Positions 321 to 25,877 of a DNA stretch of 32,000 nt are shown in pieces (position 1 is the stretch's first letter; the number at the start of each line of letters is the position of its first letter). The notes beneath the pieces are model-generated. The model was given only the letters and a program-made list of their open reading frames with translations, had not been told where the DNA came from and did not search any database. Both the position numbers and the translations under genes were made by a program. Source of the DNA: Gemmata obscuriglobus (lineage in GTDB: Bacteria; Planctomycetota; Planctomycetia; Gemmatales; Gemmataceae); assembly GCF_008065095.1 (NCBI RefSeq), contig NZ_CP042911.1, positions 7,560,001-7,592,000 of the forward strand, in the 5' to 3' direction.

Positions 321-401
321 TTCGCTAGCATGCGTCCCGTTGGGGCGTGCGACGGGCGGCCATTCGGGCCGCCCGCGTGCGTTCCCGGGGAGGGTCTGGC
401 G

Positions 402-608
402 ATGTGCAAGGCCGAACTGCCGGGCGAGATCAAGGACCGGCTGGTGAACGCGGTGACCGCGTTCGACACCTGGGACGAGCTGAAGGCGGCGATGGACGGC
501 GGCTACGTGCCGACGATCCGGGGGGAGACGGAGAACGAGCGCAAGCTCATCTGCCTGATCCTGGCCGAGGGCTACCGGGCCTGGGGCAACAAGGGCCGGA
601 ACTGGTGA
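402..608 (+). CDS. Hypothetical small protein (68 aa from ATG 402; the ORF track gives an alternative start at 330)
   Basis: GGAGGG lies 9 nt upstream of ATG 402. The product MCKAELPGEIKDRLVNAVTAFDTWDELKAAMDGG... has normal composition. I recognise no family. Confidence 0.5.
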   Translation: MCKAELPGEIKDRLVNAVTAFDTWDELKAAMDGGYVPTIRGETENERKLICLILAEGYRAWGNKGRNW

Positions 609-613
609 CCCGC

Positions 614-697
614 GGCGGGGGCCTCCGAGGCCCCCGCCCTCTTAATGCAGCCCGCGGCTGGAACCGCGGCCGGTCGCAAGCCCGGGTGAATGCAGAG
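614..697 (+). repeat. Structured intergenic cassette, copy 1
   Basis: Hairpin A is GGCGGGGGCC-tccga-GGCCCCCGCC (614-638). Box1 is TTAATGCAGCC (642-652). Hairpin B is CCGCGG-ctggaa-CCGCGG. Box2 is AAGCCCGGGTGAATGCAGAG (678-697). GGGAGG and ATG 715 follow. Confidence 0.7.
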
Positions 698-714
698 CGC
701 GGGAGGGGTTCGGA

Positions 715-963
715 ATGCAAGCGGTGAAGAACGTGGCGGGGTGGGCGCTGGGGGCGGCCCTGGTGTGGTTCCTGATCACCTCGCTCAAGGCGGTGGCCCC
801 GGCGGCCGCGGTCGAGGCGGCCCCGGTCGGCGCGCGGGTCGGGCACCTGCTGCTCCACCTGGCCCTCGGGTTCGCTTACGGGCGGTGCCTGGTCGGGGTG
901 GTGGCGGCGGCCCTGAAGCCGCTGTGGGACCGGTTCCTCGACGGGCCAGCCCGGACGACGTGA
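715..963 (+). CDS. Small hydrophobic protein with two predicted transmembrane segments
   Basis: GGGAGGGG Shine-Dalgarno (SD) sequence upstream. The product contains WALGAALVWFLITSL and HLLLHLALGFAYGRCLVGVVAAAL hydrophobic stretches. Confidence 0.55.
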   Translation: MQAVKNVAGWALGAALVWFLITSLKAVAPAAAVEAAPVGARVGHLLLHLALGFAYGRCLVGVVAAALKPLWDRFLDGPARTT

Positions 964-969
964 CCGATC

Positions 970-1051
970 GCGGCCCCGAGAAACCGGGGCCGCGGCCCTT
1001 AACCCGACCGCCCCACGGTGGGGCGCTGGTGACAAGTCCAGCAACGGGGAG
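970..1051 (+). repeat. Structured intergenic cassette, copy 2 (the most diverged copy)
   Basis: Hairpin A is GCGGCCCCG-agaaac-CGGGGCCGC (970-993). The box1-like element is TTAACCCGACC. Hairpin B is CGCCCCAC-g-GTGGGGCG (1009-1025). The box2-like element is AAGTCCAGCAACGGGGAG (1034-1051). AGGGAGG and ATG 1068 follow. Confidence 0.6.
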
Positions 1052-1067
1052 TCAAGGGAGGCTGCTC

Positions 1068-1304
1068 ATGCAAGCCGACGACGAGGCGTTTTGCGCGCTG
1101 GTGCGGCGGGTCCAGGGGAACCTGGACCGCGGGCTCCTGTGCGAGGAGGAGGACCACGAGGCCCTCTCCGAGCGGCTCCGGGGGTGCGAGACGGTGGCAG
1201 ACGTGGAGGCGCTGCAGCGGACCGCGCTGCGGTGGAACTACGCGACGCGGCCGCTCGACCCGTGGGACGACTGGCAATCCACGCTCGACACGACGCGCAA
1301 CTAG
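1068..1304 (+). CDS. Hypothetical protein (78 aa)
   Basis: This is an internal ATG of track ORF 690..1304, preceded by AAGGGAGG. The upstream part of that ORF is Gly/Arg/Pro-rich out-of-frame-type sequence that overlaps gene 715..963. Confidence 0.5.
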   Translation: MQADDEAFCALVRRVQGNLDRGLLCEEEDHEALSERLRGCETVADVEALQRTALRWNYATRPLDPWDDWQSTLDTTRN

Positions 1305-1310
1305 CCCGAC

Positions 1311-1400
1311 GCGGCCCCCGAACCCGGGGGCCGCGGGCCGTAATGCAGCCGCCGCGGCACGCGCCGCGGCGCCGGTCCCAAGCCCGGAGCGAATGCAGAG
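1311..1400 (+). repeat. Structured intergenic cassette, copy 3
   Basis: Hairpin A is GCGGCCCCCG-aacc-CGGGGGCCGC (1311-1334). Box1 is TAATGCAGCC (1341-1350). Hairpin B is GCCGCGGC-acgc-GCCGCGGC (1351-1370). Box2 is AAGCCCGGAGCGAATGCAGAG (1380-1400). GGAGG and ATG 1427 follow. Confidence 0.7.
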
Positions 1401-1426
1401 GGGGGTGAACGAACGGAGGTTTTCAG

Positions 1427-2299
1427 ATGGTGACAACGGAAGCAACGCCCCGGGAGCAGACGGCGGACGTGAACGGCGTGCACGTCCGCGTCGGCCCGTG
1501 GCGGGACGGCGGCCTCGCGGCGAGCGTGTACCCGCTCGCGGGCGGCCGCGGCCCGAGCTGGGTCAGCGACGACCCGGAGGCGGTCGCGCTGGCGCGGGCG
1601 GTGATTGCGGAGCAGCGGGGCGAGGAGGTGCTCGCCGACTACCTGGACGACAACCCGCAACCGGACACGTGCGGCGAACGGGCCGCCAGCTTGCTGCGAC
1701 AGCACGTGACCCCGCCCCGCGTCCACACGCGGACGTGGCCGGGCAGCGGGACCGCGACGGTCACGGACATGGCCCACGCCGGGAAGCGCGGCAAGACCTG
1801 CCGCGTGCTCCGGTTCAACGGCTGGGGCGCCGGGGCCGCGCGCCCGGGCACGCCCGAGGACCGGTGCGGCGGGTTCTGCCAGGGCGTCTGCCACTGGCTC
1901 GACGGGATCAGCCTGCACACCGACTTCGAGGCGCTCCGGGCCGAGCTGCTCGCCCGGCTCGCGGCGTACACCGCGGGCGACCCGGAGGCGGCGCGGGTGT
2001 ACGGGATCGTGGTCCGCGACGAACAGATCCGGGGCGTCGACGCCCCGGCGGTGCCGCTGACGGCGGGGGTCCCCGGCGCGTGGTCCGCCGGCGCGGACGA
2101 GACGGGCGTGACGATCCGCGATCTCGACGACGTGAACGAGTGGATGGAGATCACCCCGAGCCGGCAGAGCGGCAGCGAGGCGTACCGCCGTGCGGCCAAG
2201 GTGTGGGCCCGGGTCCGGACGGCCAAGACCCGCCTCGAGGCCAGCGCCATCTTGCGGGCCGCGGGGTGCAAGCTCCACGGCTACTGCGGGCGCGACTGA
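1427..2299 (+). CDS. Hypothetical protein (290 aa) with a weak TIGR02996-like (Gemmata repeat-companion) motif
   Basis: GGAGG lies 7 nt upstream. The segment LADYLDDNPQPD resembles the ADWLEE-GDP signature of TIGR02996. I recognise no catalytic motif. Confidence 0.55.
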   Translation: MVTTEATPREQTADVNGVHVRVGPWRDGGLAASVYPLAGGRGPSWVSDDPEAVALARAVIAEQRGEEVLADYLDDNPQPDTCGERAASLLRQHVTPPRVHTRTWPGSGTATVTDMAHAGKRGKTCRVLRFNGWGAGAARPGTPEDRCGGFCQGVCHWLDGISLHTDFEALRAELLARLAAYTAGDPEAARVYGIVVRDEQIRGVDAPAVPLTAGVPGAWSAGADETGVTIRDLDDVNEWMEITPSRQSGSEAYRRAAKVWARVRTAKTRLEASAILRAAGCKLHGYCGRD

Positions 2300-2306
2300 G
2301 CGCCCG

Positions 2307-2395
2307 CCGCGGCCCCGGTTTCCCGGGGCCGCGGGGCCGTAATGCGGCTCCCCGGCGCGGGCCGGGGAACGGTGGCCAGCCCGTGCAACGCAGAG
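2307..2395 (+). repeat. Structured intergenic cassette, copy 4
   Basis: Hairpin A is CCGCGGCCCCGG-tttc-CCGGGGCCGCGG (2307-2334). Box1 is TAATGCGGCT (2340-2349). Hairpin B is CCCCGGC-gcgg-GCCGGGG (2350-2367). Box2 is AGCCCGTGCAACGCAGAG (2378-2395). GGAGGG and GTG 2424 follow. Confidence 0.7.
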
Positions 2396-2423
2396 CCGGG
2401 TTCCTGTCAACGGAGGGCCGTTC

Positions 2424-2756
2424 GTGAGGAAGGCGCTTCAGCTGCTGTTGGGGTTGGTGTTCGCCGGCGGCACGTGCAGCTCGGCCCACGCCGGGCTCAC
2501 CGGGCGGGCCGGGCCGGCGGGCGTGCACCTGGTGTTCGTGGGGCTCCACGCGGCGTTCGCGGTGCGCCTGCTGTGCGCGGCGCTGGCCGGGGACCGCGGG
2601 CTCCTGGGCGACGTGCCCCGGAGGGCCGCGCTCGACGCCGCCCGCGAGGACCGGCGGCTCGCGCCGGAGGACCGGCCGGCGCGGGTCACGCACCCGTCCC
2701 ACGCCCTGCGCGAGCGGGGCGCGGCGCCGCGGGTGCGGCGGCTCGCCGCCCGGTAA
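2424..2756 (+). CDS. Hypothetical protein with an N-terminal signal or membrane segment (GTG start)
   Basis: GGAGGG lies 6 nt upstream of the GTG. The N-terminus is MRKALQLLLGLVFAGGTCSS, followed by a second hydrophobic stretch. The C-terminal half is Arg/Ala-rich, so frame confidence is only moderate. Confidence 0.4.
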   Translation: MRKALQLLLGLVFAGGTCSSAHAGLTGRAGPAGVHLVFVGLHAAFAVRLLCAALAGDRGLLGDVPRRAALDAAREDRRLAPEDRPARVTHPSHALRERGAAPRVRRLAAR

Positions 2757-2804
2757 CGAGTTCCGCTTGACCGCCCCGGGAGCCCGGGGCGATTCCATAC
2801 GCTG

Positions 2805-2840
2805 AGCCCCCGGCGGGAGAGATCCCGTCGGGGGCTTTTT
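2805..2840 (+). terminator. Intrinsic terminator between the convergent plus-strand operon and the minus-strand late genes
   Basis: A 14-bp stem AGCCCCCGGCGGGA-gaga-TCCCGTCGGGGGCT is followed by a T-run whose first T is the last stem base (ctttttgcgttt on the plus strand). A second hairpin CGCCCCGG-gagc-CCGGGGCG lies at 2772-2791. The structure is 9 nt from the stop of the minus-strand gene that ends at 2845. Confidence 0.75.
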
Positions 2841-2844
2841 GCGT

Positions 2845-5343
2845 TTACGCGGCCGCGCCCGCGGACCACGTCCCCCACTTCGGCTCCTGCCCCTTCTTGA
2901 CCAGCCCGCACGACTCGGTTGCGAGCGGGAGCTTCGCCTCCAGCGGGCACCCGCACGCGGCGCACGCGTCCAGCGCCCGCTCCTCGCACAGGGCGCACTC
3001 CGCCTGCCGCGCCTCCAGTACGTCCAGCGGCACCGTTCGGCGCCCGCCCGCCACGTGCCGCGCCATCGCCGCCGTGTAGTTCATCGCCTGGCGCCACAGC
3101 GCCGGCTTCTGTTTCACGTCCTCCGGGCACCGCGACAGAACCATCAGCCCGTGGTTGTTCCGGTCGCGGCGCGTCACCACCCAGCCCGGGTGGCGGTGAC
3201 AGAACGCCCGCAGCGCGTGCAGCACGCCCGGGGCGTCGGGCCGGTCGCCGCTCTCCCCAAACGTCTCGGTGCAGTGGACCGCGATGTACTTCGCCACCCG
3301 CTCGTGGTGCCGCTCCAGCAGGGGCATGAGCGCGTCGGCGGTGTGCTCGGTGTCGATGAACAGCAGGTCCACCGGGGGCAGGTCCGCGGTCGCCGGGTCG
3401 GCCGTGCGGCCCTCGAACCGCGCCCCCAGCCAGCCCTTCATGCGCTCCCACTGCGGCTTCGCGCGTGGGCACACGCTCACGAACGTGCCGTCGGCCGGGA
3501 GGCCGGCAACGATCGCCGCGTCCGCCGGCTTCATCCACAGCGAGAGTTCCGCGGCGCTCGTGCAGCCGGCCGCCAGCGCGCGCAGCGTGCCGACGTGCTC
3601 GTGGAAGTCGGACGGCTTCGCGGCCGACGCCTCGGCCCACGCGGCGGGCGTCGGGTGCGCGTTCGCCTCGCACGCCGAGCACCCGGCCGGCTTCTGCGGT
3701 TTGAACTGCGTCACGTCCACGTTCGACACGGTGACCATCGGGCCGGGCCACCAGTGCCGCGCCTCGCCCCAGTGCGGGTGCCACAGGGACGCGCCGCGCG
3801 GCTCGTAGCACACGTCCCCGTGCGCCGTGAACCGGCCGGCATTGTGATTGACGTGAACACTCGGAGTGCCACTCATGCCCGCGGGGTCGGCGGGCTCCAG
3901 CCGCGCCCAGGCGGACCGATCGGCCTCATGGTCCGGCTCAAGCACCACCGCCGCGCCGCTCGCCGCCTCACGTTCGGCTCGCGCGAGGTTGCTCTGGATC
4001 GTGTCCCAGCGGAGGCAGAGCTGGTGCAGGGGCTCGTGTCGCTCACGCACCCGCTGCCAGCCGGTGCCGCTGAGGCCGATGTAATCGCGGTGCGACACCA
4101 CCGGGGCCGACGGGTGCGCGGCGAGGGCGTCCCCGAGCCGGTCGAAGTACCCCGGGGGGTACAGCACGTCGTGCTCGCAGAACGCGACCGCGTCGTACTC
4201 CTCGCCCGAAGCGGTGGCATGGGCCACCGCCTGCCGGATCTGGGCCAGGATCGTGTTATAGCCCCGCTTCCGCGCCCCGATGAAGCTCCGGAGCATGATC
4301 CCGGGGGTGTTCACGCTCGGGAGAATGCCCAGGTTCCCGCCGATCTCCCAGGCGCACGCGCTGACGGTCACGTCGTGCCGGATGGTCTGCTCCCGGGCGT
4401 CAATCACGGACTGAAGCGAGCGCATGAGGAGGGGGTCCGGGGCGCTGTTATCGCTGTACCACAGGGCCAGTATCCGCTGCCGCGTTGGACCCGGACGGGG
4501 GCCGTCAAGGGGCTGAACGTGCGCCGCGGTCTTGACGAGTCTGTCCCAGGTGTCCGCCCCCAGGTTCTTCCCGAAGTGCTCGCGGATCTGCTGGTCCGCC
4601 TCAATGCCGAGTTCGCGGTGACCGACCAGCAGGTTCCACACGTGGTCCTCGGTGCGGAGCGGGTACGGGGGCGGCGGGTTGTTGTGCCAGCCGGACACGT
4701 CCCGGAACTTGTGCCGCCACCGCAGCCCGGGCACGCACAGCGCCCGGCCCCCGCGGCGCCGCACCACCTCGTGAACGTACCCCTCCTCGCCCCCGAACCC
4801 GTTGAACAGCGGGTGGAACCCGGGCCACGCCGCGGTGCGCATGAGCCACAGCCCGAGGCCCATCATGGGGATCTCGAACGGCTCGCCGGCGGGGGCCGCG
4901 CCGCGCGGGTCCGTGTCCCAGGTGCCCCACAGCCCGCCGCCCGGGTTCGGCTTCCAGTGTGTGCTCAGCCCCCGGCCGTCGTCGTACACCAGCGGCCCGG
5001 ACACGATGTCCCGCGAGTCCGGATAACGTGAGGCGAAGTCGAGGGCCGCCTGCACCGCGCCCGTTTCCAGAATCACGTGGCTGTCGATGCACAGGGCCCA
5101 CGGGGTGCGAGCGAACCGGAACACGGCGTCCCGGGGCTTGGACGTACCGGTGAGGTCCGGGCGGTGCAGGTACCGGCCGCCCACGGCCCGGGTGATCGCC
5201 TCCACCCGCGGGTCCCGCGCTGGGGTGTTGTCCACCACCAGGTACTCGACCTTCGGGTGGTTCGCGTGCAAAGCCGAGAGCACGAACCACACGTGGTCCG
5301 GCTCGCCCCGGGTCGCCATGCCGATCGTCAGCGGGCTGCTCAT
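2845..5343 (-). CDS. Multidomain enzyme: GT2-like glycosyltransferase, second GT-A-like domain, class I SAM-methyltransferase-like domain and a Cys-rich C-terminus
   Basis: 832 aa. The N-terminus has VEYLVVDNTPARD...CIDSHV, a GT2-like nucleotide-sugar/DxD-type signature. The middle has ILALWYSDNSAPD...AFCEHDVLYPPGYF, also GT-A-like. The C-terminal part has SDFHEHVGTL...DLLFIDTEHTADAL...YIAVHCTE, resembling the Methyltransf_24/CmcI-like LLFIDxxH pattern. The tail is ECALCEE...CAACGCP. All calls are by eye. Confidence 0.7.
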   Translation of the reverse strand: MSSPLTIGMATRGEPDHVWFVLSALHANHPKVEYLVVDNTPARDPRVEAITRAVGGRYLHRPDLTGTSKPRDAVFRFARTPWALCIDSHVILETGAVQAALDFASRYPDSRDIVSGPLVYDDGRGLSTHWKPNPGGGLWGTWDTDPRGAAPAGEPFEIPMMGLGLWLMRTAAWPGFHPLFNGFGGEEGYVHEVVRRRGGRALCVPGLRWRHKFRDVSGWHNNPPPPYPLRTEDHVWNLLVGHRELGIEADQQIREHFGKNLGADTWDRLVKTAAHVQPLDGPRPGPTRQRILALWYSDNSAPDPLLMRSLQSVIDAREQTIRHDVTVSACAWEIGGNLGILPSVNTPGIMLRSFIGARKRGYNTILAQIRQAVAHATASGEEYDAVAFCEHDVLYPPGYFDRLGDALAAHPSAPVVSHRDYIGLSGTGWQRVRERHEPLHQLCLRWDTIQSNLARAEREAASGAAVVLEPDHEADRSAWARLEPADPAGMSGTPSVHVNHNAGRFTAHGDVCYEPRGASLWHPHWGEARHWWPGPMVTVSNVDVTQFKPQKPAGCSACEANAHPTPAAWAEASAAKPSDFHEHVGTLRALAAGCTSAAELSLWMKPADAAIVAGLPADGTFVSVCPRAKPQWERMKGWLGARFEGRTADPATADLPPVDLLFIDTEHTADALMPLLERHHERVAKYIAVHCTETFGESGDRPDAPGVLHALRAFCHRHPGWVVTRRDRNNHGLMVLSRCPEDVKQKPALWRQAMNYTAAMARHVAGGRRTVPLDVLEARQAECALCEERALDACAACGCPLEAKLPLATESCGLVKKGQEPKWGTWSAGAAA

Positions 5344-5371: not shown

Positions 5372-7063
5372 TCAAAACGGGCTGCTGGTGCTGAGCCCGG
5401 TGGTTACGGGCGGCGGCGGTGGCGGCGGTGTGGTGGTCGTGCCCGCGCCCGCGCAGGTGCCGTTGCACGACGCCAGGGACATCGGCCCCGTGACCGTGCA
5501 GCCCGCGCACTGGTTAATCGGATCGAAGGAGCACCGCGCCACGCCCCCGGGGCACTGGCAGCAGTAGTAGTCCACCGCCGGGCCGCCGCTGGTGGTGGTC
5601 GGCGCGGGTGTGGTGGTGCTGGTGGTCGTGGTCGGCGCCGCGGTCGTGCCGCCGCCGGGGCCGCAACCGTTGGTGCACGCGACCTCGGACGGGAACTGCG
5701 ACCGCAGGGTCGGGGTCTCGTAATTCTCGCACGGGTGGCCCGGTTCGTTCGTGCAGACGAACCGAACGAATCCCTGATACCGGCACTGCCAGCAGGAGAA
5801 CGGTTGCGCGGTGGTGGTGGTGGTCGTCGTGGTGGGCGGCCCGGCGGTGGTGGTCGGCGCGGCCGTGGTGGTGACGGGCAGCGGCACGCACGCCCCGGCC
5901 GCCTGGGCGCAGGTGCCGGACGGGGCGCCGGGCGGCACCTGGCACGAGCACCCGCCCGCGTTCTCGCACGGCCGCACCACCTTGTCCCAAGCGGTGCCGC
6001 TGTCCGAGCCCCAGATGCAGTCGCCGCACCCGGCCGGGGACGCGGTGGTCACCGCCGCGCACGGGTCGGCGGCGCCGTGGACGTAGCAGCGGGTGGCGGC
6101 CTCGTGACCACAAGAGTTCCCGGGGGCGGCCGGCGCGTCGCAGGAGCAGTTGGGCACGCGCGAGCCGGCGCAAGTGTCGCCGATCTTCTCCCAGCGGTCG
6201 CTCTCGCCCGCCACCCCCGACACCCACACCCAGCGGCACCCACCGTTGCAGAACGACGGCGGCACCACGCACGGGGTGTGTGCCGGCGCACAGGACGAGC
6301 ACGCCCCGGCCGGCGGCTGACAGCCGCAGTAGCCGGCGCACCCGTTGCGCGTCTGCACCCACCCGCGGACCGGGTGACAGAACCAGTCGCACCCGTCGGC
6401 GCAGTCCGCCGGGGCCGGGCACGGGCCGCCCGTCGTGGTCGCGCCGGTGCAGTTCGGCGCCTTGGCGTCTTCGGCGAGGCGGCCGCACGCGGTGGTGGCG
6501 CAGGCGTCGGCGGCGGGGCACCACGTCGGGGCCAGGCAGGCGCAGCCGGCGGCGCAGGTGGAGGCGGTGCGGGTCCAGGCCTTTGCGGCGGCGGAGTAGG
6601 TCCACTGGCACGCGCCGGCGCACGGGCCGGCGGTCGTGGTGGGCGCGGCGGTCGTTGTGGTCGTGGTCTCGCCGACCGCCCGCACCACGGGCACGATCCC
6701 GAGGTCCGCGTCGGCCTCGCCGACCACGCGCCACCCCGGCTGCCCCTTCCGCAGCTTCCAGGTGCCGGCGCCCGCACCCCAGGTCTCGCCCGCCGCGGGG
6801 GTGCCGTCGGCGGCGTCGTACAGCGCCCACACCGGGCCGTCGGGCGCGGCCGCGCCGACCGCCCCGGCGGGCGTCGCCTCGCCCGACAGCACCCACACGT
6901 ACCCGCCGTCGGCGTCCGGCTGCGCGACCGCGTACGGCCCGGTCTTGCCGCCCCCGACGGGCCGCACCAGCGCGTGCGCGGGCGCGTCCGCGCCGGCGGC
7001 GAGGGCCACCGCGAGCCAGTTCAGCCCGCGGTCCGGGCCGTCGAACGGGAGCGGGTGGAACAT
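5372..7063 (-). CDS. Cys-rich tail fibre / receptor-binding-like protein with poly-Thr linkers (563 aa)
   Basis: ATG 7063 overlaps the upstream stop (TGATG). The 775-aa track ORF extends upstream only as an out-of-frame-type overlap with 7063..8850. The protein has an N-terminal domain of about 130 aa, three TTTAAPTTTAGP-type linkers and about 48 Cys by my count. It is the last virion-type gene before the glycosyltransferase. Confidence 0.65.
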   Translation of the reverse strand: MFHPLPFDGPDRGLNWLAVALAAGADAPAHALVRPVGGGKTGPYAVAQPDADGGYVWVLSGEATPAGAVGAAAPDGPVWALYDAADGTPAAGETWGAGAGTWKLRKGQPGWRVVGEADADLGIVPVVRAVGETTTTTTAAPTTTAGPCAGACQWTYSAAAKAWTRTASTCAAGCACLAPTWCPAADACATTACGRLAEDAKAPNCTGATTTGGPCPAPADCADGCDWFCHPVRGWVQTRNGCAGYCGCQPPAGACSSCAPAHTPCVVPPSFCNGGCRWVWVSGVAGESDRWEKIGDTCAGSRVPNCSCDAPAAPGNSCGHEAATRCYVHGAADPCAAVTTASPAGCGDCIWGSDSGTAWDKVVRPCENAGGCSCQVPPGAPSGTCAQAAGACVPLPVTTTAAPTTTAGPPTTTTTTTTAQPFSCWQCRYQGFVRFVCTNEPGHPCENYETPTLRSQFPSEVACTNGCGPGGGTTAAPTTTTSTTTPAPTTTSGGPAVDYYCCQCPGGVARCSFDPINQCAGCTVTGPMSLASCNGTCAGAGTTTTPPPPPPPVTTGLSTSSPF

Positions 7064-8850
7064 CACGCGAGTCCGAACGGGGGCGGGAGCGGGCCGGGGT
7101 CCCGGAGCCGCCGGGCCGGGGGCGGGGCCTGCCGGGCGCGGCGGTCGTACAGGGACTTGCCCAGGAACCGCCGCAGGTCCTCCTGCCGGCGCCGCTCCGG
7201 GAACGCGGGGAGGTACTGGGCGTGCTCGCTGTTGCGGCTCACGCGCGTAGTGGCCGGCTGCCCACCGCCCACCGACCACGTGACCTGCTGGATCGCCCCG
7301 TCCGGGTCGAGGGGCACGATCCCGGCGTACGTGCGGTCCGCGGCGCCGGCCGGCGCGTACCGCGCGTTCGCCGCGTTCAGGTAGTAGGTGGCGGCCGGGA
7401 TCAGATCGTCCAGGTTGTCCCCGGTGCCCTTCGGGGACATGTCCTTGATCTGCCGGTTGGTGCGGACGATGCGCACCAGCTCGGGATGCCGCAGCACCTC
7501 CGGCGGGCACCCGAGTTCGACCAGGCCGGCGAGCGTGCCGCCGTACATCCACCGCTCCGGGACGCGCCCGACGACCGAGCGGATCGTGAACCCGGTGAAC
7601 AGGAACAGGTCCGGCGCGAGCTTCCGGCCCCCCGCGTATTCGTACATCTGGCGGCCGAACGTCACCAGCCCGCGGGCGCCGTCGATGGTGGGGCGCCACG
7701 GCAGCACCTGGGAGCGGTCGGTGTGGTCAAAGGCCCGCGGCAACTCGCTCCGTGTCACCCCGTCCGCCGGGGCGATGTACACCTTCCCGCACGCCTCCGC
7801 GGGCTCGGTCATCGGCTGCCCCAGCAGGTCCTTCTGCCGGTAGTAGATGACCGGCCCGAGGACGAGCTGGTCGCGGTCGCGGACCCGCCCGTACCCGCCC
7901 ACGTTGGGGCCGTCGACCGCCGAGTTGACGACGTCGGCCATCTTCACCCGGAACGTCCGCCACACGTGCCGCCGGGCCAACTCGCGGGCCTCCTCGGCGG
8001 TCAGCTGGTTCGTGGCCGACGCCTCGAACATGGTCTGGGCGTTGCACTGGCTCCACCCCCGCGGCGGGCGGTAGCTCAGGTCGTCGATGTGCCGGACCTC
8101 GCCCGACTTCTCCAGCCCCACCGGCTCGAGCGCGAGCCAGTCGTGGTAGACGGTGGGGCCGCCGGCGAGGACGATCGTGTTGGGCCGCTCGGGCAGGTCC
8201 AGCGTCGTGCTGTTGCTGACGAAGGGGAGGTTGTCGGGCAGCGGCTTCCCGGCGCCGGCGGGGGCCAGCAGCACGCGGTTGGCGACCGGCTGGTACACGA
8301 CCCGGTACCCGACCTCGGCGGCCAGCGCGGCCAGCGCGGACGCCGGCACCTCGTCGTCCCACTCGACCGGCACCGGCACCGCCGGCGGCGGGTCGATGAG
8401 CGGCGCGGTGAGCTCGTTCATGGCCGCGAGGCAGTCGGCCATCAGCAGGTGCGCGGGCCGGTACGTGCCCGGGGCGTACGGCCCGCCGGCGGCGATGTAC
8501 TCGCCCGGCGGCAGGTTCGTGAGGTCCTCCTTGCTCGCGAGCTGGTTCCAGTTCCCCGAGATCGCGCCGTACCGCCACATCCAGCGGCGGTCGGCGATGT
8601 GGAGGACGACGGTGCGGCCGCCGGCGGGCGAGGCGCCGAAGCTGACGTCGGTGACCCGGCACCGGTCCAGCTTCACGGTGCCGACGCCGTCCGTGATGAC
8701 CAGGGTGCCGAAGCTGCGGACGGTGCGCAGGTCCTGCTCGGGGATCTCCAGGGCGGCGATCCCGGGGCCGACGTCGTGGCTCACGGTGTACGTGCACGAC
8801 ACGCACCCGACGGCGCCCGGCCACCACGCCTGCCCCAGCCGCACGCCCAT
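7063..8850 (-). CDS. Distal tail / baseplate-hub-like structural protein (595 aa)
   Basis: It lies in the tail module downstream of the tape measure and is translationally coupled on both sides (TGAcATG upstream, TGATG downstream). I recognise no specific family. Confidence 0.6.
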   Translation of the reverse strand: MGVRLGQAWWPGAVGCVSCTYTVSHDVGPGIAALEIPEQDLRTVRSFGTLVITDGVGTVKLDRCRVTDVSFGASPAGGRTVVLHIADRRWMWRYGAISGNWNQLASKEDLTNLPPGEYIAAGGPYAPGTYRPAHLLMADCLAAMNELTAPLIDPPPAVPVPVEWDDEVPASALAALAAEVGYRVVYQPVANRVLLAPAGAGKPLPDNLPFVSNSTTLDLPERPNTIVLAGGPTVYHDWLALEPVGLEKSGEVRHIDDLSYRPPRGWSQCNAQTMFEASATNQLTAEEARELARRHVWRTFRVKMADVVNSAVDGPNVGGYGRVRDRDQLVLGPVIYYRQKDLLGQPMTEPAEACGKVYIAPADGVTRSELPRAFDHTDRSQVLPWRPTIDGARGLVTFGRQMYEYAGGRKLAPDLFLFTGFTIRSVVGRVPERWMYGGTLAGLVELGCPPEVLRHPELVRIVRTNRQIKDMSPKGTGDNLDDLIPAATYYLNAANARYAPAGAADRTYAGIVPLDPDGAIQQVTWSVGGGQPATTRVSRNSEHAQYLPAFPERRRQEDLRRFLGKSLYDRRARQAPPPARRLRDPGPLPPPFGLA

Positions 8851-14107: not shown

Positions 14108-14983
14108 TCAGCCCGTGGAGTCGTTGGTGACGGCGATCGGCGGCGCCCCGCCGGTGGTGCGGCGGGCCGTGCCCGCCCAGGTGAGGTCGCGCGGCCCCCG
14201 CTGCCCGAGCGGCAGCGGCTGCTTCGGGGCCGAGACGCCGGCGAGGTTGAAGGCGATGCTGCGGTTCCCGTTCGTGAACATCGCCACCACCGCCACGCCG
14301 CTAATGGCGCTGCCGTACAGGGCGGCGGTGTCCCCGTAGGGCAGGCTCAGGTTCACCCCGACCATCAGGTCGGTGGCGCTGATCGAGCTCGGCGTGACCG
14401 AGTTGTTGAACCGCACCTGCAGCGCGTTGTTGATCTCGATCGAGATGGAGCGGAACTGGTGCGCCTGGCCGCCCACCGTCAGCACGCAGTCGGACATGAC
14501 GTACGGGCCGGCGTCGTCGTCGATCGCGTCGGCCTCGGTGGGGTCGGTGTCGACCGCCTCGTCGATGCCGACCACGTCGAGCGCCAGCCCGAGCGGCCCG
14601 CCCTCCGCGGCGCTGAACACCGCGCGGTTGACCTTGAGCCCGTTGTACAGGTGCTTGGTGCCGTCCCGGTAGGTCTTGACGAACCGCGCCGGCACGGCCT
14701 CCGCGAGCGGGAAGGCGTCCGCGTTCTCGTTGCCGCCGAGGATCCACGGCAGCAGCAGGTCCAGCTCCGAGGCGACGGGCGCCATTTGGATCGTGCCGGA
14801 CACCTGCCGCTGGGTCTCGCGCACGCGGCCCGCGCTGTGCTGGCGCGTGCCGCGGATGCCGTTGGTGTCGGTGAGGGTTTGGTTCAGCCCGAGGGTCGTG
14901 CCTTCGAGAAACTCGATAGCGGTGTACGTGGCGTCGTCGGCCGACAGCCACATGCGGTCGAACGTCCCGATCTGCTCCGCCAT
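14108..14983 (-). CDS. Major tail tube protein candidate (291 aa)
   Basis: It lies directly upstream of the chaperones and is the first gene after motif S2. It has a GGGGGTGAGGTG SD region. Composition and length fit siphovirus tube proteins. The family is not confirmed. Confidence 0.6.
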   Translation of the reverse strand: MAEQIGTFDRMWLSADDATYTAIEFLEGTTLGLNQTLTDTNGIRGTRQHSAGRVRETQRQVSGTIQMAPVASELDLLLPWILGGNENADAFPLAEAVPARFVKTYRDGTKHLYNGLKVNRAVFSAAEGGPLGLALDVVGIDEAVDTDPTEADAIDDDAGPYVMSDCVLTVGGQAHQFRSISIEINNALQVRFNNSVTPSSISATDLMVGVNLSLPYGDTAALYGSAISGVAVVAMFTNGNRSIAFNLAGVSAPKQPLPLGQRGPRDLTWAGTARRTTGGAPPIAVTNDSTG

Positions 14984-18166: not shown

Positions 18167-19135
18167 TCAGGCGCCGAGGTAGTTGCTGACCAGCAGGTCC
18201 CCGTGCCCGCGGTAGACGTTGGTCTTGGTGCCGCCCGCGGTGCCGGCCTGGATCGTCTCCGAGGTGAACACCGCGCGGAACAGGTTCTCCAGCGACGGGT
18301 TCACGATGTACGTGATGGTGTCCGCGCTGAACGTGAGCTGCTCGTTCGGCCACCACTCGTCGTCGGCCGGGTCCGCCTTGTCCAGCTTGAACCCGCGGAA
18401 CGCGAGCTCGACCGCCTTGATGATCTCCTCCACCTCGTTCACCGTGGGCAGGTCGGTGACGGTCATCTTGACCGCGCTCCACCAGAACCCGAACGCCGCG
18501 GCGCCCTCGAAGTCGTACCAGAACTTGACCTGCTTCTCCTCCTTGGACTGCGGCGAGTTGCCGTTGTCCTCGAGCCCCTTGTCCTTGCGGTCCTGCCAGA
18601 TGATCGGCTTCAGGCCGGGCGTCTTGAGCAGCGCCACCACGGTGTTCGTGGACCCGTCGTTGGCCGCGCAGTCCTTGGTCAGGGCGTTGTTCCCGGACCC
18701 GATGTTGTGGCTGGTAGCGAAGAAGTTGGACCCGTCGAAGCACGGCCCGTTGTCCCGCAGCAGCTTGAGGCTCTCGCGGCCCGGGAAGTCGGCCACGTCG
18801 GCCGCCATCATCTGCATGCGGGTGCCGTACCCGCCGGTCTGGTCGTCCTCGATGTCGCGCAGCAGGACCGCCTCCTCCGCGCTGTACTCGAGGTTCTCGA
18901 CCTTGTACTTGCTCCAGTCGGGGCGGGTGTAGTTGCGCCTCCCGAGCCACCGCTTGAGCCGCGGGGGCGGGCTCATCCACGGGTACTGCTCGATGCGGGC
19001 GGTCGAGGCCACCCGCTGGACGAACGACGTCCACGGGGTGATCTTGATGCCCGCGCGCAGGGCCTCGTACGCCTGCAGGAACTCCGACCGCATGCTGGCG
19101 GTGAAGATCGTCACCTTGTCGTTGATGTTCGGCAC
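18167..19135 (-). CDS. Major capsid protein, Mu gpT-like (322 aa)
   Basis: The N-terminal pattern ...W..VA..V.S....E.Y.W...P.L..W.G.R....Y.V.N.....V...DIEDD..G.Y...M..M is the recognisable signature of Mu-like major head subunit gpT. The gene sits downstream of the protease/scaffold. Confidence 0.8.
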   Translation of the reverse strand: MPNINDKVTIFTASMRSEFLQAYEALRAGIKITPWTSFVQRVASTARIEQYPWMSPPPRLKRWLGRRNYTRPDWSKYKVENLEYSAEEAVLLRDIEDDQTGGYGTRMQMMAADVADFPGRESLKLLRDNGPCFDGSNFFATSHNIGSGNNALTKDCAANDGSTNTVVALLKTPGLKPIIWQDRKDKGLEDNGNSPQSKEEKQVKFWYDFEGAAAFGFWWSAVKMTVTDLPTVNEVEEIIKAVELAFRGFKLDKADPADDEWWPNEQLTFSADTITYIVNPSLENLFRAVFTSETIQAGTAGGTKTNVYRGHGDLLVSNYLGA

Positions 19136-19998: not shown

Positions 19999-21726
19999 TC
20001 AGTGGACCATCGCGGCGGCGTCGGCGCCGATCAGCTTGGCGGCGGTGAACGCCGGGTCCCGCTCGGCCATGCTCTTGGCGGTCGCCACCAGCTTCTTCGG
20101 GTCGGTGCCGTGCTTGCGCAGGGCCTCGCCCTGCGCCTCGGCGAACCGCTCGACCTTGCGCACCTCTGCGGCCGCCCGGTCCTTGGCCTCGGCCGGGCCG
20201 GCGGCGAACCGCTCGCCGAACCGGACCGTCACCGGCATCTGCGCGAGCTGGGCCTTGCGGGCCTCGTAGGCGGTGAGGTTGCGGGTCCGGCCGTTCTCGG
20301 TGAACCGGTGGACGGCCCGGGTGTCGTCGAGCCCGAGCAGGAGCGGCAGGTACGCGGCCGTCACCTGGGCCGGGGTGGCCCGGCCCTCGGAGACGAGCTG
20401 GTCGCAGAACTTCGTCGCGTCGTCGCGCTTCCGCCGCTCGTTGCTGACGCGGAGCCGGCTCAGCTCGTTGTCCAACGCGGCGTTCAGCCGCTTCGCCTTG
20501 ATCGCGAGTTCGCTGTTCACGGTGACGCCCCTGCGGGTGGCGGGTTTGGGCCTGGGTTTGCGCCGCGGCTCGCTCATCGGGACGGCCGCCGGGGCCGGCG
20601 CGGGGGCCGCGGGCGGTGCGGCCGGGTCGGCGGTGAGCTGGGCGTACAGGGCGCGGAGCTGGTCGTCGGGCATGGCGTCGAGCGCGGCCGCGTCCTGGCC
20701 CTGCGCCACCAGGTCCGCGATCATCTCCTCGCGGGTCACGGCCGCCGGGTCCGCCATCGTCTCGACCGGTTCCTCGCCCTCGCCCTCGGTGCCCTCGGTC
20801 TCGGTCCCCTCGCCGATCACTTCCTCGTACAGGGCGCCGAGCTCCTCGTCGCTCATCCCCTCGAGCTCGGCCGCGTCCTCCCCCTCGTCCACCAGGGCGG
20901 CGATCATCTCCTCGCGCGACGGCTCGGCGAACATTCCGGTGGCCGGCGCGGGGGCGGGGTTCGGCGCCGGGGTCGGCGTCGCGGCCCCGGTGGGGAGGTT
21001 CTTGACCAGGTCCGCGAGGGCCTCGTCGGTCATCGCGTCGAGGGTGGACTGGCTGATCCCGGGCATGGCCGCCTGGATCGCGGCGATCATCGACTGGCGG
21101 TCCATTCTGCTCGTCTCCGCGAAGGTGATCAGGGCGCCGCGGCGGCCCCGGACGGTGTGCTCCCGGATCCGCACCCCGGCGCGCTCGCCGAACCGCAGCG
21201 GCGCGGGCATCGGCTCGGGCTTCGGCAGCGGCCCCAGGCGCTTCACCTGGGGCACCTCGCCGCCGAGGTAGCTGAACTTGCGCAGCACCTTGCCGTGCGT
21301 GTTCCCGAAGTCGTCGAGGAACGAGTCGTAGATCTCGGCCGAGCCGTACCGGTACTCGCCGCTCTCGATCTTCCGGGCCATCGCCTCGGGCACGTTGACC
21401 ACGTTCCCCTTGAGGATCACGTGCCCCGCGTGCTGCGGGTCGGGGACGGCCCGCAGGCTGTTCGGGTCGACCCACCCGGCCGCGGGCTCGTCGGTCGGCA
21501 CGAACTCGCGCCACCCCTCGTCGTCCTCGTGCCCGGGGGCCGCCGGCGGGGTGTGCAGCTTCGCGCCGCCCGGGCCGAGCTTGCGCCCGGCCTCGGCCAT
21601 GTTCCGCACCCAGTGCGGGAACCAGCGCCGGCCGCGGTACACCCCCGACGCGAACAGGTTCACGTCGCGGAGCATGTAGTAGCGGGGCTGGGTCGCGGTG
21701 CGGGGCTGGGTGGCGGCGCCGGGCAT
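19999..21726 (-). CDS. Prohead protease/scaffold, Mu gpI-like (575 aa)
   Basis: The N-terminal AAGWVDP...GHVILKGNVVNVPEAMARKIESGEYRYGSAEIY resembles the aaGWi...v.wT..A...i..geYrY.Sp.f signature of Mu-like prophage protein I. The C-terminal half is acidic and helical, as in scaffolds. I chose ATG 21726 because the upstream part of track ORF 19999..22206 is antisense to the TIGR03067-like gene. Confidence 0.6.
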   Translation of the reverse strand: MPGAATQPRTATQPRYYMLRDVNLFASGVYRGRRWFPHWVRNMAEAGRKLGPGGAKLHTPPAAPGHEDDEGWREFVPTDEPAAGWVDPNSLRAVPDPQHAGHVILKGNVVNVPEAMARKIESGEYRYGSAEIYDSFLDDFGNTHGKVLRKFSYLGGEVPQVKRLGPLPKPEPMPAPLRFGERAGVRIREHTVRGRRGALITFAETSRMDRQSMIAAIQAAMPGISQSTLDAMTDEALADLVKNLPTGAATPTPAPNPAPAPATGMFAEPSREEMIAALVDEGEDAAELEGMSDEELGALYEEVIGEGTETEGTEGEGEEPVETMADPAAVTREEMIADLVAQGQDAAALDAMPDDQLRALYAQLTADPAAPPAAPAPAPAAVPMSEPRRKPRPKPATRRGVTVNSELAIKAKRLNAALDNELSRLRVSNERRKRDDATKFCDQLVSEGRATPAQVTAAYLPLLLGLDDTRAVHRFTENGRTRNLTAYEARKAQLAQMPVTVRFGERFAAGPAEAKDRAAAEVRKVERFAEAQGEALRKHGTDPKKLVATAKSMAERDPAFTAAKLIGADAAAMVH

Positions 21727-21732
21727 GCCCCC

Positions 21733-21762
21733 ACTGTGCGCGGGAGGGTTGCCCGGATGAAA
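21733..21762 (-). promoter_or_regulatory. Late promoter-like motif S3 (TTTCAT-N18-CACAGT)
   Basis: The minus strand reads TTTCAT CCGGGCAACCCTCCCGCG CACAGT, then 6 nt, then ATG 21726. Confidence 0.5.
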
Positions 21763-21895
21763 GAAGACCAAAAAAGAGTTGGGCCGCACCAATCGGTGCG
21801 GCAACGCGTCGGCTCTCATCACTCCTTCGTTTGCTCTAACTAAATCGCCATTGCGTCCTCGGACCCGAAGCACCACCCACCACGTGAGGGCTCTG

Positions 21896-22330
21896 ATGAA
21901 CCGGCTTTGTTTCTGCGTGCTCGCGGCGCTCTTCACCACCTGCGTTTCCTTGGGCGAAGAGCAGCCGAAGGCCGTGAAGGACGAACTCAAATTGCTGGAA
22001 GGTGAGTGGAAGGTCGTCAAAGCCGAGAGCGGCGGAAAGGCGGTCAAATCGAAGTCGGTTGTCGTGTACACCGCGGACGGGAAGTCCTCCATTTCGGACC
22101 CCAACTCGGGGCTGCCGCCGCTGAAGACAACGATCGCGCTCGACCCAACGAAGAAGCCGAAATGGATCGACGTGACGAACGCCCGGGGCCGCACCGATAA
22201 GGGCATTTATGAGTTGAACGGCGATCAGATGAAGGCCGTGTTCCGTGCCGGCGGGGACCGACCGACGGAGTTCAAAACGGAAGCCGAGGGCGAGGTGATG
22301 TACACTTACGAGCGGGTCAAACCCAAGTGA
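21896..22330 (+). CDS. Secreted TIGR03067-family (Planctomycetes-type) protein (144 aa), low-GC cargo gene
   Basis: Signal peptide MNRLCFCVLAALFTTCVSLG. LEGEWKVVKAESGGK...IALDPTKKPKWIDVT...GIYELNGDQMKAVF...RPTEFKTE...YERVK matches the TIGR03067 pattern (LqGtWkvvs.e..Gk...y.ldp.kkPk.iD....G...GIYkldgD.L.l......RPteF). The gene is on the opposite strand to the late genes. Confidence 0.75.
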   Translation: MNRLCFCVLAALFTTCVSLGEEQPKAVKDELKLLEGEWKVVKAESGGKAVKSKSVVVYTADGKSSISDPNSGLPPLKTTIALDPTKKPKWIDVTNARGRTDKGIYELNGDQMKAVFRAGGDRPTEFKTEAEGEVMYTYERVKPK

Positions 22331-24696: not shown

Positions 24697-25872
24697 ATGT
24701 CAGAAAAAGTCAAAATACTCTTCCTAGCAGCAAATCCGTCGGACCTGACACAGTTGCAGCTGGACGAAGAAATTAGAGCAATTCAGGGCAAAATCCGATC
24801 TGCTGACTTCAGCAGTAACTTCGACCTTGTCTCACGCTGGGGGGTGCGGCCCAGCGACTTGATTCAGGCTTTTAACGAAGTACGCCCTCACATAGTCCAT
24901 TTCAGCGGGCACGGTAGCCGTACTGCTGAACTTGCCCTCAAGAGCGATGATGGGACGACTAAGCCTGTAACTGCCGCAGCACTTGTGAGTCTTTTCAGAA
25001 GCGCGGGTAGCAGTGTACAACTGGTCGTCCTCAACGCCTGCCACTCCGACGCGCAAGCACACGCCCTAAGTCGAGAAGTCGAATGCACCATTGGAATGAA
25101 CGCCGAAATTGGGGACAATGCAGCGATAGCATTCGCTTCACGCTTTTATGGCTCTCTGGCATTTGGCCTTTCCGTCGGGCAAGCTTTCGAGCAGGGCAAA
25201 ACGGAACTGATGCTAGAAGGAATTCCCGAGGAGGATACGCCTGTTCTCCTATGCCGCCCTGACGCAACTCCTCACACGATTGCTTTCGTCAACCGAGTTC
25301 CGGTTAATCCGCTGCTACCGCCTTTGGCCTGGGAGATTCTTCAGCATGCGATAGACGGCAATGGCCCAGTCCAATTGAGCGAGTACGATGGTGGCGTTGT
25401 GGCCATGGCAGCTGGGACGCCGTTTGATAGCGGTTTCGACACCCAACAAGCCGCGCTGATCCGCGACTCGATCCGTCTCCTCTTGCAATGCCGCTGGCTT
25501 GAACGATCCGATCGCGAGCTTTTGCATGTTACGGCAGAGGGCTTCGAGGCGATTCGTAAACGCGCAGGTGCCCAAAGCCCAAGCTTCCTCAAAATCAAAG
25601 AGCAGATGCCCGCGCTTTTTGCAGAGATGAAGAAAGACCTGGAGAGCAAAGAAGGCAAGTTCGTGCGAGAGTTTTTCGTCATGAGCCGCCGCCACGCCCT
25701 CGGCGGCTCAGATAAGCCTCGATTTGTCTACTACGAAGAGGATCATTCCAACCTCCGCGGCCAGATTGACATCTTGGAAAACCAAGGCTACCTGACCGAC
25801 GTGACCCCGAAAAATGTACCTATTTACCGCATGAGCGAAGAGCTTGTGAGGCTGGTACTTAAATTTGGATAA
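24697..25872 (+). CDS. Minimal CHAT (caspase-like His-Cys) protease domain fused to an uncharacterised, possibly winged-helix-like, C-terminal half (391 aa); low-GC cargo gene
   Basis: The N-terminal 190 aa follow the CHAT pattern KILFLAANP.D...L.LDEEIR.I......FDLVSRWGVRPSDL...F....PHIVHFSGHG....L.L......LVVLNACHS.AQA......V.C.IGM...IGD.AAI.FA..FY..L..G.S...AF. The predicted dyad is His72 (CAC 24910-24912) and Cys115 (TGC 25039-25041). GC is about 50% against about 70% in the flanks. AGAGG SD. Confidence 0.8.
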   Translation: MSEKVKILFLAANPSDLTQLQLDEEIRAIQGKIRSADFSSNFDLVSRWGVRPSDLIQAFNEVRPHIVHFSGHGSRTAELALKSDDGTTKPVTAAALVSLFRSAGSSVQLVVLNACHSDAQAHALSREVECTIGMNAEIGDNAAIAFASRFYGSLAFGLSVGQAFEQGKTELMLEGIPEEDTPVLLCRPDATPHTIAFVNRVPVNPLLPPLAWEILQHAIDGNGPVQLSEYDGGVVAMAAGTPFDSGFDTQQAALIRDSIRLLLQCRWLERSDRELLHVTAEGFEAIRKRAGAQSPSFLKIKEQMPALFAEMKKDLESKEGKFVREFFVMSRRHALGGSDKPRFVYYEEDHSNLRGQIDILENQGYLTDVTPKNVPIYRMSEELVRLVLKFG

Positions 25873-25877
25873 GTCGC

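Follow-up and report, generated by a model that had tools for sequence, protein, structure and literature searches.

The window analysed here is a stretch of 32,000 nucleotides of Gemmata obscuriglobus (contig NZ_CP042911.1, positions 7,560,001 to 7,592,000; GC ~73%), in which a plus-strand operon of five co-directional open reading frames (ORFs; 402-2756) has the same structured cassette in each of its four intergenic gaps. The ribozyme part of this cassette is, judging by its sequence and pairing pattern, a self-cleaving ribozyme of the type-P1 twister class (Rfam RF03160, clan CL00120). Each cassette is read as a GC hairpin with no U-tract (hairpin A) and a twister that follows 2-5 nt further on, a combination through which the operon mRNA is most probably self-processed into stable monocistronic mRNAs.

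The cassette is present in all four gaps (609-714, 964-1067, 1305-1426 and 2300-2423, copies 1 to 4, respectively) and nowhere else in the 32 kb, and its elements always follow one another in the order stop codon, hairpin A, box 1, variable hairpin B, CNGG-T..C.AGY-CCNG, box 2, Shine-Dalgarno sequence (SD) and start codon. An earlier note on this DNA had described such a common order, which is borne out by the sequence, with the whole cassette matching an independent covariance model at E values of 4e-20 to 4e-9. The note was also correct in placing a GC hairpin directly past each stop codon, where a stem of 10-12 bp is found, and in stating that this hairpin lacks a proper U-tract, given that the bases past the four A hairpins are GCCCU, GGCCCU, GGGCCG and GGGCCG and that the terminator scan reports only the site at 2804-2837. 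Copies 1 and 3 share TAATGCAGCC as box 1 and AATGCAGAG as box 2; the corresponding boxes are TAATGCGGCT and AACGCAGAG in copy 4, and TAACCCGACC and AACGGGGAG in copy 2. As the counts of box 1 and box 2 alone show no excess over shuffles, significance must rest on the element as a whole.

The two boxes had been taken for conserved linear sequences, and while the sequences themselves are present, they are not single-stranded: box 1 is paired with box 2, and the two change in concert (UGCA/UGCA, UGCG/CGCA and, for copy 2, CCCG/CGGG), forming the two strands of helix P2 of the twister, together with the conserved UAA cleavage site and the GAG, with hairpin B being the optional P3. A third hairpin, CNGG-UNNCAAGY-CCNG, is the stem-loop P4; the segment AAGCCCGG makes up its 3' half, and its loop pairs both with the bases just past box 2 and with the RC dinucleotide past box 1, forming the two pseudoknots of the twister.

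The default Rfam scan of the window, at the gathering cut-off (67.2 bits), returned nothing because all four copies score below this value, which is the annotation cut-off of Rfam and not a structural criterion. With an E-value threshold, RF03160 was matched by copy 1 at 639-703 (63.5 bits, E 2e-13), copy 3 at 1337-1406 (48.9 bits, E 3e-9) and copy 4 at 2336-2401 (36.4 bits, E 1.3e-5), with copy 2 unreported at E<=10; the phage loci tested gave 41.8-58 bits. A covariance model (R2) built from 26 phage twisters of IMG/VR, which included no sequence of the window and was run with the filters off, finds exactly four matches in the 32 kb, the limits of which are the twister coordinates given in the table: copy 1 (64.2 bits, E 3.6e-20), copy 3 (52.9 bits, E 3.3e-16), copy 2 (48.1 bits, E 1.7e-14), in which all the modelled pairs are canonical, and copy 4 (32.7 bits, E 4.4e-9). 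The next-best match in the 32 kb reaches 10.5 bits (E 0.28), and no further copy was found by R2 in the 8.5 kb to the left of the window. The weaker version that the earlier note had seen in the leader of the first gene (330-400) is not a copy, as it yields a noise match of 7.4 bits (E 3.4) on the opposite strand only. Other ribozyme classes were not detected in the window, which matches no Rfam family but twister, and a match labelled Gemmataceae (L150), among those listed for bacterial genome contigs, was rejected as a chance match within a coding region. By their predicted structure, the cassettes have every feature of the twister-P1 class that was examined, and fall short only of the Rfam score cut-off; the class is already known, and the four Gemmata copies are further members of it.

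The published definition of the twister comprises the essential helices P1, P2 and P4, an optional P3, which is found in 78%, the pseudoknots T1 and T2, and a U-A cleavage dinucleotide adjoining P1 (PMC5408937), and the helices, pseudoknots and U-A site found here match this definition. All four copies align to RF03160 or R2 over their full length; in each of them, P2 and P4 are fully paired and P3 has 5-8 bp, and P1 comprises 4-6 bp in the first two copies and ~3 bp in the last two. In copies 1 to 4, T1 is formed by CGC/GCG, GAC/GUC, CCC/GGG and GGC/GCC, respectively, and T2 by GC/GC in copies 1, 3 and 4 and by the compensatory AC/GU in copy 2, a switch from GC to AU that is also found in 5/34 and 11/99 other instances. 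Copy 2, which seems degenerate, is thus fully compensated in relation to the other copies (P2 CCCG/CGGG, T2 AC/GU), and its nested minimum free energy (MFE) fold consists precisely of hairpin A together with P1, P2, P3 and P4. The UAA, AA, GAG and U..C.AG are found in all four copies, and in copies 1-3 every core position checked is the consensus of the twister set (the A on the 3' side of the cleaved bond, the AA ahead of the 3' strand of P2, the GAG, and the U..CAAG in L4, the loop of P4). Every helix, including both pseudoknots, is kept across the four copies through compensatory changes, and the view of the earlier note that the covariation of hairpin B reflects selection on RNA structure is upheld, with the hairpin sequences essentially as it gave them.

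The same structure was evaluated in a comparison set of 104 twister matches from bacterial genomes, among the matches listed, in which the full structure with both pseudoknots is 90.5% paired (P2 99.2%, T2 99.0%, P3 90.3%, P4 97.0% and T1 99.7%). None of 500 shuffles comes up to the unshuffled set in covariation score or in the percentage of paired cells, and both measures break down once the 3' partners are shifted by 1-3 columns; the picture obtained from a set of 34 sequences agrees. At the near-invariant position of L4 at which copy 4 has a C, an A is found in 98 of the 104 other bacterial matches and a C in 6, and it is this substitution that makes activity least certain for copy 4. A pattern search of IMG/VR (CAAGYCCNGN{0,4}SAAYGCAGAG) returned 84 stretches, about half of which contain the cassette in its entirety, and the GC content of these phage contigs is 37-64%. 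The cassette, with a different hairpin B, is also found upstream of a metagenomic relative of gene 4 (L003, 64% identity); this copy, at 7-79 of that locus, is in the position orthologous to copy 3, from which it differs by compensatory changes in P2, P3, T1 and T2.

Hairpin A lies outside the twister model, and in each copy its 3' end is found 2-5 nt ahead of the predicted U^A site. Its association with the ribozyme was examined in a sample of 142 distinct twister instances, of which the 45 nt upstream of the cleavage site were folded, with controls taken 200 nt further upstream. A fold of <= -10 kcal/mol was found upstream of 85% of the twisters, against 34% of the controls (n=142), with medians of -13.4 and -7.6, respectively (Wilcoxon p 8e-17), and the 3' end of the hairpin in this sample is usually 2-6 nt before the scissile bond. 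By a crude ORF test that has no formal control, 102 of 134 instances have a co-directional stop codon on their upstream side (median distance 25 nt) and an SD with a start codon on their downstream side (median 27 nt). In the window, hairpin A is nearly identical in sequence in copies 2-4 (CGCGGCCCC.../...GGGGCCGCG), and the cassettes therefore probably arose by duplication.

The ribozymes are placed one per internal junction of the operon (4/4), with none ahead of gene 1 or past gene 5. Given the single terminator-like site, past gene 5, the promoter-free gaps, in none of which a sigma-70-like promoter was found, and the spacing of 2-5 nt between hairpin A and the ribozyme, the five genes (GC at third codon positions, GC3, of 0.95-0.98) are best read as one transcription unit. 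Gene 1 would have no preceding ribozyme because transcription initiation supplies its 5' end, and the terminator makes the 3' end of the last cistron, where a ribozyme is therefore unneeded. Past the stop codon of gene 5 and ahead of the terminator there is an extra GC hairpin (2771-2791, plus strand, CGCCCCGGG-agc-CCGGGGCG); it is similar to hairpin A, but has no twister on its 3' side. The sequence searches of Pfam, PHROGs, PADLOC and PDB found no function for the five operon proteins.

The mechanism proposed here begins with one RNA for the five genes, which would run from a promoter in ~203-401 to the terminator at 2804-2837. At each junction, while this RNA is being transcribed, the twister would fold its P1, P2, optional P3 and P4 and the pseudoknots T1 and T2, and would then cut its own backbone at the U^A sites 643/644, 1000/1001, 1341/1342 and 2340/2341. 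The upstream cistron would end in hairpin A, a few nucleotides and a 2',3'-cyclic phosphate, with hairpin A of copy 1, for example, being predicted to form the 3'-terminal stem-loop of the cleaved gene-1 mRNA, and the downstream cistron would begin with a 5'-OH enclosed by the compact fold of the twister, with the start codon 13-25 nt further on. The outcome would be the conversion of the operon RNA into five monocistronic mRNAs with defined and protected ends. In copy 1, the P1 3' strand GGAGGG (702-707) overlaps the SD of gene 2, and in copy 2 P1 (CCCU 996-999/AGGG 1055-1058) overlaps the SD AAGGGAGG, so that the loss of the short 5' strand of P1 after cleavage could unmask the ribosome-binding site in these two copies.

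Individual steps of this mechanism have counterparts in the literature. In the pRAP design in E. coli, a stem-loop preceding the ribozyme is required for the expression of the upstream cistron (PMC9872166), and in the 3' cleavage fragment of the twister the pseudoknots persist and the 5' end lies buried (PMC8782182). When active, a type-P1 twister engineered to contain the SD within P1 yielded a 5-fold higher expression, and cleavage in the 5' untranslated region (UTR) in E. coli left the mRNA level unchanged (PMC5052635). Bacterial twisters have been reported near phage genes, with polycistron processing proposed (PMC6765202), and the reviews, which suggest this processing for bacterial twisters and hammerheads, still call the function elusive (PMC6765202, PMC5408937). 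The RNA-processing or stabiliser site that was among the options of the earlier note pointed in the right direction.

Several points weigh against self-processing by the four copies. Their cleavage and transcript ends are predicted only, and all four score under the 67.2 bits of Rfam, with copy 2 unreported. Copy 4, with its A-to-C change in L4 and its 33-36 bits, may be slow or dead, and P1 has just ~3 bp in copies 3 and 4. Nested MFE folding, which ignores pseudoknots, favours alternative pairings for copies 1, 3 and 4, which are very GC-rich, and is uninformative for these copies. Gene 4 homologues in other phages have no nearby twisters, and the literature describes the role of bacterial twisters as elusive (PMC6765202, PMC5408937).

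These same points feed two of the alternative readings. The cassettes may derive from twisters that have decayed and are non-catalytic, acting as folded 5'- or 3'-UTR stabilisers or translation-coupling spacers, or only some of them may cleave, as could be expected from the scores below the Rfam cut-off, the L4 change and weak P1 of copy 4, and the competing GC-rich folds that are predicted. However, the core positions of copies 1-3 are all consensus and both pseudoknots are intact, the compensatory changes among the copies and in relation to the metagenomic relative of gene 4 point to continuing selection on the full tertiary fold and not on hairpins alone, and the L4 C variant recurs in 6/104 other matches, so that we regard this reading as quite unlikely. 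It is also possible, although unlikely, that the twisters are active but serve another purpose, with hairpin A as a folding insulator that prevents the coding sequence from mispairing with the ribozyme, for which a tight hairpin 2-6 nt upstream is plausible, and with cleavage either lowering distal expression or making 5'-OH and cyclic-phosphate ends for phage-host interaction, rather than stabilising monocistronic mRNAs; the elusive function of bacterial twisters and the unchanged mRNA level after 5'-UTR cleavage in E. coli (PMC5052635) speak in its favour. Against this stand the pRAP stem-loop, which, when placed before the twister, rescues the expression of the upstream cistron (PMC9872166), and the number and placement of the ribozymes, which fit a logic of end definition in which the promoter and the terminator supply the outer ends.

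The remaining readings do without a ribozyme. The analogy drawn in the earlier note with the nut (boxA + boxB) or put sites of processive antitermination, in which a box and a stem-loop of the nascent RNA modify the RNA polymerase to read through hairpin A, draws on a superficial likeness: a conserved box adjoins a hairpin, and a stem resembling a terminator is close by, all within a prophage. The boxes, however, pair and co-vary, which is unexpected for single-stranded protein-binding boxes, the element is found downstream of hairpin A rather than upstream of a terminator to be suppressed, hairpin A has no U-tract, and the whole element fits the twister-P1 model with E values down to 4e-20, which leaves the analogy extremely improbable. 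The near identity of hairpin A in copies 2-4 could also be expected from palindromic DNA of the repetitive extragenic palindrome (REP), bacterial interspersed mosaic element (BIME) or miniature inverted-repeat transposable element (MITE) type, spread into the gaps with no specific RNA function. This seems hardly credible, given that there are only four copies in the ~41 kb scanned, in a single operon and a single orientation, that the architecture recurs in phage contigs (37-64% GC) and in bacterial contigs labelled Clostridia, Bacteroidales, Cyanobacteria, Saccharibacteria, etc., and that the stems vary in sequence yet remain paired, with coordinated double changes in P2 and T2 of copy 2. A few candidates considered by eye were also dropped: a sigma-54 or sigma-70 promoter, which has the wrong spacing and where the scan finds no promoter-like site; an integron attC, as inverse core sites are absent and the repetition of the boxes is direct, not inverted; a tRNA-like T-arm; and a GNRA-capped extension of hairpin C.

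The self-processing of the operon mRNA by hairpin A and the twister may be extended to a broader proposal, which we consider evenly balanced: that hairpin plus twister is a conserved composite module, that operon splitting is the long-sought role of bacterial and phage type-P1 twisters, that the SD is unmasked in copies 1 and 2, and that the Gemmata operon is a natural counterpart of pRAP. For annotation, the gain consists of four twisters in a cultivable planctomycete that were missed at the default threshold of Rfam, and their escape from this threshold indicates that very GC-rich twisters are under-called. The presence of ribozymes at exactly the internal junctions, together with the likeness of the hairpin arrangement to pRAP, makes mRNA self-processing directly testable in one small natural operon.

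Table. Features of the operon, of the four cassettes and of the prophage genes, in window coordinates; cleavage sites are predicted.
Feature	Coordinates	Strand	Description
Leader hairpin	354-374	+	GGGCGGCC-auucg-GGCCGCCC, upstream of gene 1; plain hairpin, no plus-strand model match
Gene 1	402-608	+	68 aa, GC3 0.97; no family match
Hairpin A, copy 1	614-638	+	GGCGGGGGCCU-CCG-AGGCCCCCGCC; 3' end 5 nt before cleavage site; no U-tract
Twister, copy 1	637-706	+	Predicted cleavage U643^A644
Copy 1 helices	P2 646-649/691-694; P3 653-657/664-668; P4 670-673/682-685		P2 UGCA/UGCA
Copy 1 loops	L2 650-652; L4 674-681		L2 GCC; L4 UCGCAAGC
Copy 1 pseudoknots	T1 675-677/697-699; T2 650-651/680-681		
Gene 2	715-963	+	82 aa, hydrophobic, GC3 0.95; probably a membrane protein
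Hairpin A, copy 2	969-994	+	CGCGGCCCCG-AGAAAC-CGGGGCCGCG; 3' end ~5 nt before cleavage site
Twister, copy 2	994-1060	+	Predicted cleavage U1000^A1001
Copy 2 helices	P2 1003-1006/1045-1048; P3 1010-1015/1019-1024; P4 1026-1029/1038-1041		P2 CCCG/CGGG; P4 CUGG/CCAG
Copy 2 loops	L2 1007-1009; L4 1030-1037		L2 ACC; L4 UGACAAGU
Copy 2 pseudoknots	T1 1031-1033/1051-1053; T2 1007-1008/1036-1037		T1 GAC/GUC; T2 AC/GU
Gene 3	1068-1304	+	78 aa, GC3 0.95
Hairpin A, copy 3	1310-1335	+	CGCGGCCCCC-GAAC-CGGGGGCCGCG-type stem, 10-11 bp
Twister, copy 3	1335-1409	+	Predicted cleavage U1341^A1342
Copy 3 helices	P2 1344-1347/1394-1397; P3 1351-1358/1363-1370; P4 1372-1375/1384-1387		P3 GCCGCGGC; P1 weak, ~3 bp
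Copy 3 loops	L2 1348-1350; L4 1376-1383		L2 GCC; L4 UCCCAAGC
Copy 3 pseudoknot T1	1377-1379/1400-1402		CCC/GGG
Copy 3 downstream	SD 1415-1419; start codon 1427		
Gene 4	1427-2299	+	290 aa, conserved phage-associated family, no annotation
Hairpin A, copy 4	2307-2334	+	CCGCGGCCCCGG-UUUC-CCGGGGCCGCGG, 12 bp
Twister, copy 4	2334-2404	+	Most divergent; predicted cleavage U2340^A2341
Copy 4 helices	P2 2343-2346/2389-2392; P3 2350-2356/2361-2367; P4 2369-2372/2381-2384		P2 UGCG/CGCA; P4 ACGG/CCGU
Copy 4 loops	L2 2347-2349; L4 2373-2380		L2 GCU; L4 UGGCCAGC, C in place of the usual A
Copy 4 pseudoknot T1	2374-2376/2395-2397		GGC/GCC
Copy 4 downstream	SD 2412-2417; GTG start 2424		
Gene 5	2424-2756	+	110 aa, N-terminal signal- or transmembrane-like segment, GTG start, GC3 0.98; last cistron
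Intrinsic terminator	2804-2837	+	15-bp stem, then U-tract; sole canonical one of the unit
Tail tube	14108-14983		
gpT major head	18167-19135		
Head protease	19999-22206		
Mu F-like	25878-26894		
Mu portal	within 26761-31989	-	

The product of gene 4 has 41 homologues, some of which are encoded beside portal, terminase or DpdA genes, and most of which have ~190 aa and match its C-terminal two thirds; the family has an invariant NAGKRGKxC motif and a C-terminal AGCxLHGYCxxD. The close metagenomic relative described above is the only gene 4 relative that keeps an orthologous twister copy, and the homologue loci L004-L006 and L211-L215 contain no twister, which indicates that the ribozymes are neither required by the genes nor tied to the gene 4 family.

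Its genes for portal, F, gpT, protease and tail tube mark the window as a whole as a Mu-like prophage. In the ORF at 26761-31989 (minus strand; 1742 aa), the Mu portal domain occupies the first ~350 residues only, and the rest may stem from a fusion or from an ORF that was called too long in GC-rich DNA. Between the Mu-like head and portal genes, a CHAT-domain gene is found on the opposite strand (24697-25872, plus), within a low-GC island (25001-26000, GC 0.56), and looks like an inserted moron or defence-type gene. The ORF at 5372-7699 (minus) encodes a long, Thr/Pro-rich and Cys-rich protein with poly-Thr linkers and no family match, and adjoins an 832-aa GT2 glycosyltransferase gene (2845-5343, minus). 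Approximately 6 kb to the left of the window start (L001 2474-2536, minus), there is a weak and partial match to transfer-messenger RNA (17.4 bits, E 8e-4), which could be a duplicated ssrA fragment marking the attachment site or boundary of the prophage.

Compared with the type-P1 twister of RF03160, the cassettes share the order of P1, P2, optional P3 and P4 with both T1 and T2, the nucleotides N^AA, RCY in L2 (the loop past box 1), U..CAAGY in L4, AA and GAG, the U-A cleavage dinucleotide adjoining P1, and the neighbourhood of phage genes. The Gemmata copies differ in falling under the gathering cut-off, in their GC background of ~73-77%, in the P2 CCCG/CGGG and T2 AC/GU of copy 2, in the C for A in L4 of copy 4, and in the short P1 of copies 3 and 4.

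The arrays of type II hammerheads and twisters in phages and prophages likewise place several ribozymes at the junctions of genes, all on a single strand and a few kb at most apart, and the literature has noted twister and hammerhead RNAs within a few kb of each other. Four twisters are found in L120, three twisters and four type II hammerheads in L064, and three twisters each in L055, L084 and L145; the earlier note had called a copy before every gene unusual, which was overstated, as phage and prophage contigs repeatedly contain 3-4 twisters in an array on one strand, often mixed with type II hammerheads. The array of L120 (549-4315, plus), a contig of a metagenome-assembled genome labelled Bacteroides, has four same-strand twister-P1 matches ~1-1.5 kb apart and resembles that of Gemmata in a very different lineage. 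Several same-strand type II hammerheads (four in L064) were also observed in the twister-bearing IMG/VR phage contigs L064, L017, L070, L026 and L050, and RAGATH-28 RNAs in L026 and L050. In contrast with the mixed arrays, that of Gemmata is of twisters only, is found at every internal junction of a five-gene unit and belongs to a planctomycete prophage.

The lambda nut and HK022 put sites are likewise short structured RNA elements in prophage transcripts, but the cassette has no boxA-like single-stranded box, is placed differently with respect to the hairpin, and is a twister in both sequence and structure. In pRAP, the unit is identical (ORF, stem-loop, twister, ribosome-binding site, ORF) and the last cistron ends at a terminator (PMC9872166). 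The pRAP system is, however, synthetic, is transcribed by T7 RNA polymerase in E. coli and uses identical ribozyme copies, whereas the Gemmata copies have diverged in every stem. In the early genes of phage T7, RNase III sites cut the polycistronic mRNA into units that keep a protective 3' stem-loop, which is similar to the Gemmata operon in the structured intergenic cutting of a phage polycistron, but this cutting depends on a protein enzyme of the host and on another RNA structure, whereas the Gemmata RNA would cut itself, leaving a 5'-OH and a 2',3'-cyclic phosphate.

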